Source: a plasmid
Assembly (NCBI RefSeq): GCF_054482525.1
Contig: NZ_JBTHVG010000003.1
Strand: one strand, 5' to 3'
DNA length: 64,000 bases
Position numbers and translations under genes: made by a program. Each line of letters opens with the position of its first letter. Position 1 is the stretch's first letter. Shown here piece by piece: positions 4,998-11,987 of this stretch. The notes below the pieces were generated by a model, which was not told the DNA's origin, did not search any database, and was given only the letters and a program-made list of their open reading frames with translations.

Positions 4998-5817
4998 GGC
5001 ACTGTTGCAAAGTTAGCGATGAGGCAGCCTTTTGTCTTATTCAAAGGCCTTACATTTCAAAAACTCTGCTTACCAGGCGCATTTCGCCCAGGGGATCACC
5101 ATAATAAAATGCTGAGGCCTGGCCTTTGCGTAGTGCACGCATCACCTCAATACCTTTGATGGTGGCGTAAGCCGTCTTCATGGATTTAAATCCCAGCGTG
5201 GCGTTGATTATCCGTTTCAGTTTGCCATGATCGCATTCAATCACGTTGTTCCGGTACTTAATCTGTCGGTGTTCAACGTCAGACGGGCACCGGCCTTCGC
5301 GTTTGAGCAGAGCAAGCGCGCGACCATAGGCGGGCGCTTTATCCGTGTTGATGAATCGTGGGATCTGCCACTTCTTCACGTTGTTGAGGATTTTACCCAG
5401 AAACCGGTATGCAGCTTTGCTGTTACGACGGGAGGAGAGATAAAAATCGACAGTGCGGCCCCGGCTGTCGACGGCCCGGTACAGATACGCCCAGCGGCCA
5501 TTGACCTTCACGTAGGTTTCATCCATGTGCCACGGGCAAAGATCGGAAGGGTTACGCCAGTACCAGCGCAGCCGTTTTTCCATTTCAGGCGCATAACGCT
5601 GAACCCAGCGGTAAATCGTGGAGTGATCGACATTCACTCCGCGTTCAGCCAGCATCTCCTGCAGCTCACGGTAACTGATGCCGTATTTGCAGTACCAGCG
5701 TACGGCCCACAGAATGATGTCACGCTGAAAATGCCGGCCTTTGAATGGGTTCATGTGCAGCTCCATCAGCAAAAGGGGATGATAAGTTTATCACCACCGA
5801 CTATTTGCAACAGTGCC
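4998..5817 (-). mobile_element. IS26 copy 2 (inverted relative to copy 1)
   Basis: IRs GGCACTGTTGCAAA at both ends; transposase identical to copy 1. Confidence 0.95.
5050..5754 (-). CDS. tnpA: IS26 transposase
   Basis: Identical protein to copy 1. Confidence 0.95.
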   Translation of the reverse strand: MNPFKGRHFQRDIILWAVRWYCKYGISYRELQEMLAERGVNVDHSTIYRWVQRYAPEMEKRLRWYWRNPSDLCPWHMDETYVKVNGRWAYLYRAVDSRGRTVDFYLSSRRNSKAAYRFLGKILNNVKKWQIPRFINTDKAPAYGRALALLKREGRCPSDVEHRQIKYRNNVIECDHGKLKRIINATLGFKSMKTAYATIKGIEVMRALRKGQASAFYYGDPLGEMRLVSRVFEM

Positions 5818-6073
5818 AGTTTTATTGTTACATTTAAATCCACGCCGGGATCGCGGTTTTTTATCCCCCCCCTGGACCGCACATAAAGTGCAACAATTAT
5901 TCTTGCACTTAGTTAAGCGCCTTCCTACAATCGCCGCGATAGTGTATTCGAAATTGTTACAGTTTTGTGGCGATGATCGACACAAATGGCCTTAAGCCAG
6001 CCCGGACAAAGGAAGTGGCGCGGCTTCTCACGCTGCGTCTTGCCCGGCGGCTACATTTACCGGAATAAAAATA

Positions 6074-7249
6074 ATGAGCCTGCAAAAAACCTGGGGAAAC
6101 ATTCACCTGACCGCGCTCGGCGCGATGATGCTCTCCTTTCTGCTCGTCGGCTGCGACGACAGCGTCGCACAGAATGCTGCGCCTCCCGCCCCGACGGTCA
6201 GCGCCGCTAAGGTGCTGGTGAAGTCGATCAGTCAGTGGGATAGTTTTAACGGTCGCATTGAAGCGGTGGAGAGCGTTCAGCTTCGCCCTCGCGTCTCGGG
6301 ATACATTGATAAAGTGAATTACACTGACGGCCAGGAGGTGAAAAAGGGCCAGGTGCTGTTCACGATAGATGACAGAACCTATCGCGCCGCGCTGGAGCAG
6401 GCGCAGGCGGCGTTGGCAAGAGCCAAAACGCAGGCCAGCCTCGCGCAAAGCGAGGCGAACCGCACCGATAAATTAGTCCATACCAACCTCGTCTCCCGTG
6501 AAGAGTGGGAGCAGCGCCGGTCAGCCGCGGTTCAGGCGCAGGCCGACGTTCGCGCCGCGCAGGCGGCGGTGGATGCCGCGCAGCTTAACCTCGACTTCAC
6601 CAAAGTGACCGCCCCTATTGACGGCCGCGCCAGCCGGGCGCTGATCACCAGCGGTAACCTGGTCACCGCGGGCGACACCGCCAGCGTGCTCACCACCCTG
6701 GTCTCGCAAAAGACGGTGTACGTCTACTTTGACGTCGACGAGTCAACCTACCTCCACTATCAAAACCTCGCCCGCCGCGGGCAAGGCGCGTCCAGCGATA
6801 ATCAGGCGCTCCCGGTGGAGATTGGCCTGGTGGGCGAGGAGGGTTACCCCCACCAGGGCAAAGTGGATTTTCTCGATAATCAGTTAACGCCGAGTACCGG
6901 CACCATCCGCATGCGTGCGCTGCTGGATAACTCGCAGCGTCTGTTCACGCCGGGGCTGTTTGCCCGCGTGCGTCTGCCGGGCAGCGCAGAGTTCAAAGCC
7001 ACGCTGATCGACGACAAAGCGGTACTGACCGATCAGGATCGTAAATACGTCTATATCGTTGATAAAGATGGTAAAGCACAGCGCCGCGACATTACCCCAG
7101 GGCGGCTGGCAGACGGTTTACGCATCGTTCAGAAGGGGTTGAATCCTGGGGATAGCGTCATCGTCGACGGCTTACAAAAAGTGTTTATGCCGGGTATGCC
7201 GGTTAACGCCAAAACCGTTGCCATGACCTCCAGCGCCACCCTTAACTGA
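6074..7249 (+). CDS. oqxA: RND efflux periplasmic adaptor OqxA
   Basis: 391 aa, MSLQKTWGNIHLTALGAMMLSFLLVGCDDS...; lipoprotein signal; followed by the RND pump gene. Confidence 0.95.
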   Translation: MSLQKTWGNIHLTALGAMMLSFLLVGCDDSVAQNAAPPAPTVSAAKVLVKSISQWDSFNGRIEAVESVQLRPRVSGYIDKVNYTDGQEVKKGQVLFTIDDRTYRAALEQAQAALARAKTQASLAQSEANRTDKLVHTNLVSREEWEQRRSAAVQAQADVRAAQAAVDAAQLNLDFTKVTAPIDGRASRALITSGNLVTAGDTASVLTTLVSQKTVYVYFDVDESTYLHYQNLARRGQGASSDNQALPVEIGLVGEEGYPHQGKVDFLDNQLTPSTGTIRMRALLDNSQRLFTPGLFARVRLPGSAEFKATLIDDKAVLTDQDRKYVYIVDKDGKAQRRDITPGRLADGLRIVQKGLNPGDSVIVDGLQKVFMPGMPVNAKTVAMTSSATLN

Positions 7250-7272
7250 TCCCTAATCAGAGAATCCAAGAC

Positions 7273-10494: not shown

Positions 10495-10974
10495 TTAATG
10501 CGCTTTTTTAAAGCGGGCGATCATTTCCGGCACCGGGTCGCAGCCGCTGGTATCGGCGTTTTTGACCGCCTCCAGCGCGCTGGCCACGGTATGGCGAGCG
10601 AGGACGTTTAACGAAGCCTGCTCTGCTTCATCGGCAACCGATTTGAAGTACCAGCAGGCGTTGGCGCTGACCACGCAGCGGGCCGGGACGTCAGGACGCG
10701 ACGCCCACAGTTTTTTATCTTCGATAACCGAAAGATAGATATCACGCAGGGTGATCTTGTCCGCCGGACGGCCAAGATGAATTGAGCCGTTGCGACCAAG
10801 CGTGGAGACGATAATGCCGTCACGAGTTAGCGGAACCATTAGTTTACGGATAAAGCTCGGGTTCGCTTCCAGGCCGTAGGCCAGAATCGCACTCGTCGAA
10901 CGTTCACCCATCTGCTCCGCCATTGCTACGCTGAGAACCATCTGCAAAGCTGTCGGGAAGCGGTAATCTAACAT
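10495..10974 (-). CDS. oqxR: Rrf2-family transcriptional repressor OqxR
   Basis: Convergent to oqxB; start reassigned to internal Met (MLDYRFPTALQ...) because the ORF-track N-terminus reads through the IS26 end. Confidence 0.8.
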   Translation of the reverse strand: MLDYRFPTALQMVLSVAMAEQMGERSTSAILAYGLEANPSFIRKLMVPLTRDGIIVSTLGRNGSIHLGRPADKITLRDIYLSVIEDKKLWASRPDVPARCVVSANACWYFKSVADEAEQASLNVLARHTVASALEAVKNADTSGCDPVPEMIARFKKAH

Positions 10975-11023
10975 GGCAGTGTCCTGGGTTGCGGTGAATC
11001 TTGTTCTTTTTAGCACCGCAGAG

Positions 11024-11843
11024 GGCACTGTTGCAAAGTTAGCGATGAGGCAGCCTTTTGTCTTATTCAAAGGCCTTACATTTCAAAAACTCTGCTTACC
11101 AGGCGCATTTCGCCCAGGGGATCACCATAATAAAATGCTGAGGCCTGGCCTTTGCGTAGTGCACGCATCACCTCAATACCTTTGATGGTGGCGTAAGCCG
11201 TCTTCATGGATTTAAATCCCAGCGTGGCGTTGATTATCCGTTTCAGTTTGCCATGATCGCATTCAATCACGTTGTTCCGGTACTTAATCTGTCGGTGTTC
11301 AACGTCAGACGGGCACCGGCCTTCGCGTTTGAGCAGAGCAAGCGCGCGACCATAGGCGGGCGCTTTATCCGTGTTGATGAATCGTGGGATCTGCCACTTC
11401 TTCACGTTGTTGAGGATTTTACCCAGAAACCGGTATGCAGCTTTGCTGTTACGACGGGAGGAGAGATAAAAATCGACAGTGCGGCCCCGGCTGTCGACGG
11501 CCCGGTACAGATACGCCCAGCGGCCATTGACCTTCACGTAGGTTTCATCCATGTGCCACGGGCAAAGATCGGAAGGGTTACGCCAGTACCAGCGCAGCCG
11601 TTTTTCCATTTCAGGCGCATAACGCTGAACCCAGCGGTAAATCGTGGAGTGATCGACATTCACTCCGCGTTCAGCCAGCATCTCCTGCAGCTCACGGTAA
11701 CTGATGCCGTATTTGCAGTACCAGCGTACGGCCCACAGAATGATGTCACGCTGAAAATGCCGGCCTTTGAATGGGTTCATGTGCAGCTCCATCAGCAAAA
11801 GGGGATGATAAGTTTATCACCACCGACTATTTGCAACAGTGCC
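11024..11843 (-). mobile_element. IS26 copy 3 (same orientation as copy 2; with copy 2 brackets oqxAB-oqxR as a Tn6010-like composite unit)
   Basis: IRs read directly; identical transposase. Confidence 0.95.
11076..11780 (-). CDS. tnpA: IS26 transposase
   Basis: Identical protein to copies 1 and 2. Confidence 0.95.
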   Translation of the reverse strand: MNPFKGRHFQRDIILWAVRWYCKYGISYRELQEMLAERGVNVDHSTIYRWVQRYAPEMEKRLRWYWRNPSDLCPWHMDETYVKVNGRWAYLYRAVDSRGRTVDFYLSSRRNSKAAYRFLGKILNNVKKWQIPRFINTDKAPAYGRALALLKREGRCPSDVEHRQIKYRNNVIECDHGKLKRIINATLGFKSMKTAYATIKGIEVMRALRKGQASAFYYGDPLGEMRLVSRVFEM

Positions 11844-11987
11844 ACGCAAAGACGTAATGAGCAGTGTATCCCCTGCCACAATACCCTCTTCAGGGATGCT
11901 GTCAGTGGACGTCCAGTACTGACCCGCCAGCAAAGAATGAAATCGCTCTAAACGGTCAATGCTATTTTTGCTGACCAGGTCACCCAT
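11844..11987 (-). pseudogene. 5' fragment (48 codons) of a backbone gene truncated by IS26
   Basis: ATG at 11985-11987 with strong upstream SD (GGAAGGA); frame MGDLVSKNSIDRLERFHSLLAGQYWTSTDS... runs without stop into the IS26 end. Confidence 0.4.

Follow-up and report, generated by a model that had tools for sequence, protein, structure and literature searches.

A known IS26-bounded oqxAB unit, very probably Tn6010, as the last module of a pOLA52-type block in an ST3-type IncHI2 plasmid

Gene content of the oqxAB unit and of the upstream block

The window analyzed here is a stretch of 64,000 nucleotides of a plasmid (contig NZ_JBTHVG010000003.1, assembly GCF_054482525.1). It carries an IS26-bounded oqxAB unit that is preceded by a block of mobile-element sequences and followed by the beginning of a plasmid backbone gene, with the following features:

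1320-1357 (unstranded): 38-bp terminal inverted repeat (GGGGTCTGACGCTCAGTGGAACGAAAACTCACGTTAAG, read directly), which we take to be of the Tn3/Tn2 type, forming the left end of the pOLA52-type block
1353-2655 (-): Tn3-family tnpA, 3' part only (435 C-terminal amino acids), interrupted by IS26-A; Pfam DDE_Tnp_Tn3, 495.8 bits
2656-3475 (+): IS26-A, inverted relative to IS26-B and IS26-C; Tnp26 N184 variant
3476-3613 (-): short fragment recognized by its translation, presumably an N-terminal piece of a Tn3-type TnpA, which it resembles
3614-4003 (+): bleO, encoding a bleomycin-binding protein, without the first few codons; NCBIfam bleO, 297.9 bits (cut-off 275), profile positions 10-134
4323-4715 (-): pyridoxamine 5'-phosphate oxidase (PNPOx) family gene in a low-GC segment (0.37); Pfam PNPOx_N, 39 bits
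4998-5817 (-): IS26-B, left arm of Tn6010
5818-6073 (+): upstream region of oqxA, derived from Klebsiella pneumoniae and without rarA (alignment to K. pneumoniae ATCC 13883)
6074-7249 (+): oqxA, periplasmic adaptor subunit of an RND pump; NCBIfam OqxA, 873 bits (cut-off 835)
7273-10425 (+): oqxB, inner-membrane RND permease subunit; NCBIfam OqxB, 2490 bits (cut-off 2200)
10441-10478 (unstranded): hairpin resembling a bidirectional terminator, with runs of A and T, separating oqxB from the convergent oqxR
10495-10974 (-): oqxR, Rrf2-family repressor of 159 amino acids; Pfam Rrf2, 68.2 bits
10975-11023 (-): remaining native sequence upstream of oqxR, 49 bp (comparison with the K. pneumoniae chromosome)
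11024-11843 (-): IS26-C, which forms the right arm of Tn6010 and at the same time bounds the multi-IS26 resistance region on the right
11844-11987 (-): first 48 codons of an IncHI2 backbone gene truncated by IS26-C (tblastn, R478 protein WP_011152986.1)

As the sequence-only reading had described, two directly oriented IS26 copies (4998-5817 and 11024-11843, 820 bp each and identical) bracket oqxA, oqxB and oqxR. The spacing of these direct repeats, from IS26-B to IS26-C, is 6,026 bp, and the whole IS26-oqxA-oqxB-oqxR-IS26 unit spans 6,846 bp when both 820-bp copies are counted. The reading frames of oqxA and oqxB are full length and intact. The description of oqxR as a divergent gene was wrong, since it is convergent with oqxAB, tail to tail, and transcribed towards oqxB. 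The hairpin separating the two transcription units had a folding energy of -22.1 kcal/mol (z = -7.75), with equally stable folds in 0 of 200 shuffled sequences. The OqxR protein has the same accession (WP_000888203.1) as in the pOLA52 and pHNTS53-1 annotation.

OqxA and OqxB would form an RND efflux pump exporting olaquindox, quinolones and chloramphenicol; the OqxAB pump works with an outer-membrane channel of the host. The phenotype described for OqxAB is a reduced susceptibility to these three kinds of compound, with expression freed from full OqxR repression (PMC9045139). The region upstream of oqxA is the site of the oqxA promoter and of the OqxR-binding region, with transcription starting 135 bp upstream of oqxA (PMC9045139). 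Our promoter scans around oqxA and oqxR returned 0 and 2 matches, respectively, not above the level of shuffled sequences. Hybrid promoters involving the outward TTGCAA of IS26 were considered and rejected: they fitted poorly on visual inspection, and transcription of oqxA has been published to start further downstream.

The window harbors three identical 820-bp IS26 copies, which have the 14-bp terminal inverted repeats (GGCACTGTTGCAAA, read directly) and the 234-amino-acid DDE transposase of this element (NCBIfam IS6 transposase, 278 bits; cut-off 125). Their transposase differs from the standard Tnp26 in one residue, N184 replacing G184, and this N184 variant (IS26-v1 type) has been reported to be more active. 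The inverted copy IS26-A, located 1.5 kb upstream of the unit, had been missed in the sequence-only reading; it is part of the same inherited block. The 33-amino-acid tnpA-like fragment (3476-3613) that follows it gave no match in Pfam, the query being very short. The bleO gene was also called by the AMRFinder annotation in pHNTS53-1 and pOLA52, and the PNPOx gene is named "nimC" in the oqxAB literature (PMC6387526).

Origin of the captured segment in the K. pneumoniae chromosome

The core enclosed by IS26-B and IS26-C (5818-11023, 5,206 bp) showed 98.9% identity to the chromosome of K. pneumoniae ATCC 13883, with homology stopping at both IS26 ends. This strain encodes an identical OqxR protein, and the gene order is that of the K. 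pneumoniae rarA-oqxA-oqxB-oqxR locus, where oqxR is convergent too. The unit differs from the chromosomal locus in that rarA is excluded and the DNA upstream of oqxR is cut. The divergent gene upstream, rarA by position, was left outside the unit; the homology to the chromosome stops 72-76 bp short of it. At the other end, the sequence upstream of oqxR is replaced by IS26 from position -49, with 49 bp kept, in agreement with the description in PMC9045139. The chromosomal oqxR transcription start lies at -62 (PMC9045139), and the cut at -49 thus removes the chromosomal promoter together with the transcription start.

IS26 has very probably taken up 5.2 kb of K. pneumoniae chromosomal DNA, without the activator gene rarA and with the oqxR promoter cut away 49 bp upstream of the gene. 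The loss of rarA, the truncated oqxR promoter and a partly lost repression have all been described (PMC9045139). According to published work, pump expression would be constitutive in new hosts because repression was weakened by the truncation at capture.

Relation to Tn6010 of pOLA52

The designation "Tn6010-like" was borne out by alignment to the reference unit of pOLA52 (NC_010378), a plasmid from E. coli of swine manure whose replicon is IncX1, whereas that of the present plasmid is IncHI2. Also in pOLA52, two direct IS26 copies with identical junctions enclose oqxA-oqxB-oqxR in this order over 6,846 bp; the two units are collinear and differ at 3 of the 6,846 positions. Tn6010 has been defined in PMC9045139, and the unit combines its direct IS26 pair, the K. 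pneumoniae oqxA, oqxB and oqxR genes without rarA, the pOLA52 junctions and the truncated oqxR upstream sequence. A review gives the length of Tn6010 as 6,731 bp, compared with the 6,846 bp measured here and in pOLA52 itself.

With respect to pOLA52, the alleles carry I159V in OqxA and H434Y and V635I in OqxB (named OqxA2 and OqxB2 by NCBI), while the OqxR protein is identical. We have considered whether selection could be read from these substitutions and found it unsupported: oqxAB has 3 non-synonymous changes and no synonymous one, a pattern that has a neutral probability of roughly 0.4 and is not statistically unusual.

The similarity to pOLA52 exceeds Tn6010. It begins at window position 1319, and positions 1319-11843 could be aligned over 10,525 bp with 5 mismatches (3 of them inside the 6,846-bp unit) and no gaps. 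This 10.5-kb block comprises a Tn2 end, the tnpA fragment, the inverted IS26, bleO, the PNPOx gene and Tn6010, and a 10-kb fragment common with pOLA52 has been reported (PMC6387526). The two plasmids part to the right of the last IS26, which is followed by the blaTEM-1 part of Tn2 in pOLA52 and by the truncated IncHI2 backbone gene here.

The truncated backbone gene

The number of codons assigned to the truncated gene was exact: 48 N-terminal codons are left at the right-hand IS26 (from 11987 down to 11844), and the frame then runs through 8 IS26-encoded codons. The open reading frame is preceded by a plausible Shine-Dalgarno sequence (GGAAGGAAAAGTAT-ATG). It is a real gene, as had been supposed, since 47 of the 48 residues are identical to a homologue of 1111 amino acids in R478 that continues past the junction. 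A longer version was also found in the related plasmid pS38, where it has an identical N-terminus and extends over about 240 codons on a backbone that is 100% identical here. The sequence-only reading would have been contradicted by the lack of any homologue beyond the IS26 junction; both R478 and pS38 continue there. The full-length backbone gene was present in 298 records.

When the R478 protein was used in tblastn searches for the remaining 1063 codons, only residues 1-48 were recovered, both from the window and from 48 kb of pHNTS53-1. What lies at the left end of the pHNTS53-1 resistance region is a transposase-like fragment (identified by eye) and not the rest of the backbone gene. The 1111-amino-acid protein had no match in Pfam, NCBIfam or PHROG, and its matches in PADLOC and PDB were insignificant (E-values of 0.016 and 0.09, respectively).

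The IS26/codon-48 junction as a probable shared boundary

We have compared the 8-bp flanks of the three IS26 copies of the window and of all six copies in pHNTS53-1, both directly and as reverse complements, and no matching pair was found. The flanks of the unit are CTTCCTTG to the left of IS26-B versus ACGCAAAG to the right of IS26-C; the target duplication by which insertion of a classical compound transposon is recognized is thus missing. The pOLA52 unit likewise has no matching 8-bp flanks.

The identical IS26/codon-48 junction was detected in at least 316 plasmid records, with oqxB-oqxR beside it in at least 83; both numbers are counts among the matches listed, in which full-length matches, having the highest scores, should be included. 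Three inspected records with other cargo at this junction (pXJW9B277-HI2-N, pEGY1-MCR-1 and p220k) carried dfrA14-arr-2-cmlA, aac(3)-II or an ISVsa3 region. The IS26 variant found at the junction also varies among plasmids (transposases WP_001067855.1, WP_001067858.1 and WP_001067834.1). Because there is no target duplication, the remainder of the gene is absent and the cargo is varied, the junction very probably corresponds to a boundary that ST3-type IncHI2 plasmids have in common, on the right of their multi-IS26 resistance region. The same resistance-region boundary is seen in multiresistance plasmids of this type (pHNTS53-1, and those of the pHXY0908 and pHK0653 type). The IS26 beside the cut gene very probably represents a deletion boundary generated by IS26 and shared within the plasmid lineage, with about 3.2 kb of the gene lost, and different IS26-bounded modules adjoin that boundary in different plasmids.

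The oqxAB unit itself is already known and ordinary. As for its setting, we consider it very probable that the IS26 pseudo-compound transposon present here is the known Tn6010, forming the last module of a pOLA52-type block at the right edge of the resistance region of an ST3-type IncHI2 plasmid essentially identical to pHNTS53-1. None of the observations spoke against this identification.

Alternative origins of the arrangement

The unit had been read as inserted into the backbone gene, with the junction as the insertion point; that is, Tn6010 would have moved, in the manner of a compound transposon, directly into the uninterrupted gene, IS26-C marking the site. IS26-C does lie directly against codon 48, and R478-type plasmids have an intact copy of the gene. 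However, the flanks of the unit do not match each other or those of any other IS26 examined, the DNA to the left of the unit is bleO/PNPOx and not the rest of the gene, whose remaining 1063 codons are absent, and the sequence in common with pOLA52 covers 10.5 kb and not Tn6010 alone. In addition, most plasmids carrying this junction have other cargo there, among the matches listed. This made direct insertion very unlikely. A mis-join during assembly was also considered, identical 820-bp repeats being a classic cause of such errors, but many complete plasmids of E. coli, Salmonella, Klebsiella and Raoultella, sequenced independently of one another, contain the same 12.4 kb without a break and with 100% identity, and the first 29.4 kb (window positions 1-29438) is 100% identical to pHNTS53-1, so that an artefact is hardly conceivable.

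The order of events at the boundary can be put in two ways. The pOLA52-type block, a Tn2 interrupted by an IS26 array, may have entered the resistance region first as a whole, and an adjacent deletion made by IS26-C may then have removed the right-hand portion of Tn2 together with all DNA as far as codon 48; oqxAB would be the original occupant, and other cargo would have come later via IS26 exchange. Consistent with this, the block keeps the left Tn2 inverted repeat and the tnpA fragment without the blaTEM side that follows IS26-C in pOLA52, and the junction IS26 is of the N184 type, as are the other two copies of the block and all three in pOLA52. Yet the variant at the junction differs between plasmids, which makes it an unreliable marker, and oqxAB lies beside the junction in only at least 83 of at least 316 records (among the matches listed); we would give this sequence of events somewhat less than an even chance. 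Alternatively, the IS26 at codon 48 could be older than oqxAB, and the block could have been added beside it, joining or replacing other cargo, either through homologous recombination of IS26 copies or through a translocatable unit that was incorporated in an IS26-targeted, conservative reaction. We put this at roughly even. The other cargo in most junction-bearing records, again among the matches listed, is in line with it, the missing duplication is expected for targeted IS26 reactions, and circular IS26-oqxAB molecules have been reported (PMC4855149, PMC6387526), but a translocatable unit of 6,026 bp alone leaves the co-arrival of the upstream IS26-bleO-PNPOx-Tn2 fragment unexplained.

Mobility, distribution and significance

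Tn6010 in this setting may move in the form of a translocatable unit, made up of one IS26 and the 5,206-bp segment (6,026 bp in total), or via IS26-IS26 recombination, and neither route would require a target duplication. Circular IS26-oqxAB intermediates have been reported (PMC6387526), and inverse PCR detected circles in 20 of 20 IncHI2 transconjugants (PMC4855149). The arrangement follows the Harmer and Hall model of IS26 pseudo-compound transposons and translocatable units, with direct IS26 copies in an array of modules, no target duplications and interchangeable modules beside a fixed IS26. There is no difference in kind; all three copies here are of the N184 variant.

A further-reaching reading would make the codon-48 IS26 a docking point common to the whole lineage of ST3-type IncHI2 plasmids, where modules (oqxAB, dfrA14-arr-2-cmlA, aac(3)-II and others) would be swapped repeatedly, and in which N184 and the three OqxA/OqxB changes might be adaptive. 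We regard this as possible but rather doubtful, and if true, it would illustrate known IS26 biology by a well-documented case and involve no new mechanism.

The significance of the locus lies in annotation and surveillance and not in discovery, as it places a transferable efflux determinant on a widespread conjugative IncHI2 plasmid type. For annotation, an IS26 junction beside a truncated backbone gene should not be taken as the insertion site of the adjacent module.

The unit was present at a coverage of at least 80% in 320 plasmid records. Beyond the identical stretch, the window is collinear with pHNTS53-1; one IS1 of that plasmid is missing here, and the window has an extra IS4-family insertion at 50547-51883.

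Identity of the oqxAB unit

The Tn6010 structure in the window is real and had been correctly named by the sequence-only reading; it is already in the literature and is carried by hundreds of sequenced plasmids. Corrections to the earlier account were limited to the orientation of oqxR, the extent of the inherited block, which is larger, and the reading of the right-hand junction. The features concerned are listed below.

Features of the Tn6010 region (window coordinates)
1320-1357: 38-bp terminal repeat, presumably of a Tn3/Tn2-type transposon; left end of the block
1353-2655: tnpA 3' part, cut by IS26-A (Pfam DDE_Tnp_Tn3)
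2656-3475, transposase on plus strand: IS26 copy A, inverted relative to B and C
3476-3613: short tnpA-like N-terminal piece, other side of IS26-A
within 3614-4997: bleO, first few codons missing (NCBIfam 298 bits, cut-off 275)
within 3614-4997: PNPOx-family gene ("nimC"), in a low-GC stretch (0.37)
4998-5817, transposase on minus strand: IS26 copy B
6074-7249, plus: oqxA (NCBIfam OqxA 873 bits, curated cut-off 835)
7273-10425, plus: oqxB (NCBIfam 2490 bits, cut-off 2200)
10495-10974, minus: oqxR, Rrf2-family regulator of 159 aa (Pfam 68 bits)
11024-11843, transposase on minus strand: IS26 copy C

Window 1319-11843 (10,525 bp) aligned gap-free with 41897-51602 of the Tn6010 reference plasmid pOLA52 (NC_010378), continuing through the origin to 819. 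Of the 5 mismatches, only 3 fell within the IS26-to-IS26 unit, which bore out the Tn6010-like assignment. The unit measured 6846 bp in both plasmids; the 6731 bp given in a review (PMC6387526) could not be reproduced from the sequence. At a coverage of at least 80%, the 6846-bp unit was found in 320 plasmid records, which span several replicon types.

The coordinates and counts of the earlier reading (IS26 copies, oqx genes, 48-codon stub) were confirmed on re-reading the window, as was the direct orientation of the IS26 copies around oqxA-oqxB-oqxR. Its divergent oqxR was mistaken: the gene lies 3' of oqxB on the opposite strand, and the two are convergent. Between them, a strong hairpin at 10441-10478 has A and T runs alongside (-22.1 kcal/mol, z = -7.75). 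The regulator has a single protein accession, also annotated in pOLA52 and in the near-identical IncHI2 plasmid pHNTS53-1.

All five nucleotide differences from pOLA52 change amino acids:
4435-4436: PNPOx P94F
6548: OqxA I159V
8572 and 9175: OqxB H434Y and V635I

At the differing OqxA and OqxB sites, Klebsiella pneumoniae ATCC 13883 keeps the pOLA52 residues, and thus the window alleles are derived. Selection behind the five differences was considered, and the numbers were too few to show it.

IS26 copies and mobility

The three IS26 copies are 820 bp each, identical to one another, and carry the terminal repeat GGCACTGTTGCAAA. Copies B and C point the same way, with a start-to-start spacing of 6026 bp. 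All three encode N instead of G at Tnp26 residue 184, as do the three corresponding copies in pOLA52, and differ by 3 nt from the standard IS26 copies of pHNTS53-1. They are of the IS26-v1 type. The N184 variant is credited with higher cointegrate formation by Pong et al. (2019), as cited in PMC9019673.

Movement of Tn6010 could involve a translocatable unit of 6,026 bp or IS26-IS26 recombination, and neither route would require a target duplication. Both fit the reported IS26-oqxAB circles, which were detected by inverse PCR in 20/20 IncHI2 oqxAB transconjugants (PMC4855149) and in 93% of oqxAB-positive strains (PMC6387526).

A larger block in common with pOLA52

The block common to the window and pOLA52 exceeds Tn6010, running from the Tn3/Tn2-type repeat through the tnpA 3' part, inverted IS26-A, the tnpA-like piece, bleO and the PNPOx gene to Tn6010. 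In pOLA52, the last IS26 is followed by the half of this Tn2 that carries blaTEM-1. The 3614-4997 segment (bleO and PNPOx gene, GC 0.37) looks foreign to Enterobacterales. The upstream arrangement is already published, since nimC, blmS, IS26 and Tn3 elements have been noted upstream of Tn6010 in Salmonella plasmids, where the whole 10-kb fragment from pOLA52 was proposed to have moved (PMC6387526). At 144-1328, a sul1 and qacE-delta-like remnant (class 1 integron 3' conserved segment) and a small cupin-domain fragment directly adjoin the Tn2 terminal repeat.

Chromosomal origin and regulation

A 30-mer taken from oqxB and searched in representative genomes matched the K. pneumoniae ATCC 13883 chromosome, which is 98.9% identical to window 5814-11024, exactly the inter-IS26 DNA. 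Next to oqxA, homology stops 72-76 bp short of the start of the divergent chromosomal gene upstream, such that 256 bp upstream of oqxA were retained and that gene, rarA by position and literature, was left out.

OqxR is identical to that of ATCC 13883, and only 49 bp of native DNA remain upstream of oqxR before IS26. According to PMC9045139, oqxR transcription starts on the chromosome 62 bp before the ORF, within the DNA missing here, and in the Tn6010 form 33 bp into the ORF. The same work reports that OqxR binds to the oqxA promoter region and that the upstream truncation lifts repression in part, with higher OqxAB expression.

The truncated backbone gene

Right of IS26-C, a minus-strand ORF starts at 11987, preceded by GGAAGGAAAAGTAT, and spans precisely 48 codons before it meets the IS26 end at 11844, plus 8 more inside IS26. 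At the homologous position, the IncHI2 prototype R478 has a 3336-bp gene (809-4144) for a 1111-aa hypothetical protein (WP_011152986.1), identical at 47/48 of the first residues. The backbone of pS38 is 100% identical to window 11844-17987, and there the same N-terminus (MGDLVSKNSIDRLE...) runs on as ...TSLR-YVEDKLH... to about residue 240, followed by another element. Homologues thus continue past the junction in R478 and pS38, and the proposal that IS26 truncates a real backbone gene held. The gene was at least 80% present in 298 plasmid records and the 144-bp stub alone in roughly 400; plasmids can therefore survive without the complete gene. Searches of the 1111-aa protein against Pfam, NCBIfam, PHROGs, PADLOC and PDB gave no matches.

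The gene is truncated differently in pS38, at about codon 240 (4604-5785), by DNA next to ISApl1-mcr-1 that codes for a 393-aa protein, by eye presumably methyl-accepting chemotaxis protein-like. R478 carries a group II intron (ltrA, 5696-7183) between a 205-aa hypothetical gene and umuD, which the window lacks (about 13400-13550); ltrA also lies within the probe region in NZ_CP138481.1, an oqxAB IncHI2 plasmid.

The IS26/codon-48 junction

The junction had been read as the insertion point of the unit. We found no 8-bp duplication, direct or reverse complement, among the six IS26 flanks of the window or the twelve of pHNTS53-1. The remaining 1063 codons were absent from the window and from the far end of the pHNTS53-1 resistance region, where a transposase-like fragment adjoins the backbone. 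A 120-bp probe for the exact junction matched at least 316 plasmid records, and a 4.8-kb probe requiring oqxB-oqxR plus backbone was covered at ≥80% in at least 83; full-length matches rank first in both searches and should therefore have been kept. After the same junction IS26, pXJW9B277-HI2-N carries dfrA14-arr-2-cmlA, pEGY1-MCR-1 aac(3)-II, and p220k a recombinase and ISVsa3 region.

Given the lack of duplications, the missing codons and the varied cargo, the junction is not the insertion point of the unit; it is the right boundary of a multi-IS26 resistance region, common to this IncHI2 lineage. An IS26-associated deletion of ~3.2 kb of the backbone gene produced this boundary, and the modules beside it are interchangeable. 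The oqxAB block may itself have created the boundary or may have come to an IS26 already there.

Plasmid context

Over 1-29438, the window shows 100% identity with pHNTS53-1, which comes from a Raoultella ornithinolytica isolate (lettuce, Guangzhou) and is of IncHI2 type; the rest is collinear except for two insertion-sequence differences. An IS1 present in pHNTS53-1 at the position of window 29438-29586, which adds 777 bp with its duplication, is missing from the window. Conversely, the window has at 50547-51883 a 1337-bp IS4-family insertion, which we take to be IS186-like, with terminal inverted repeats and the 13-bp direct repeat GGGGGTTGCCCCC on its flanks. Its absence from pHNTS53-1 hints at a past stay in Escherichia coli.
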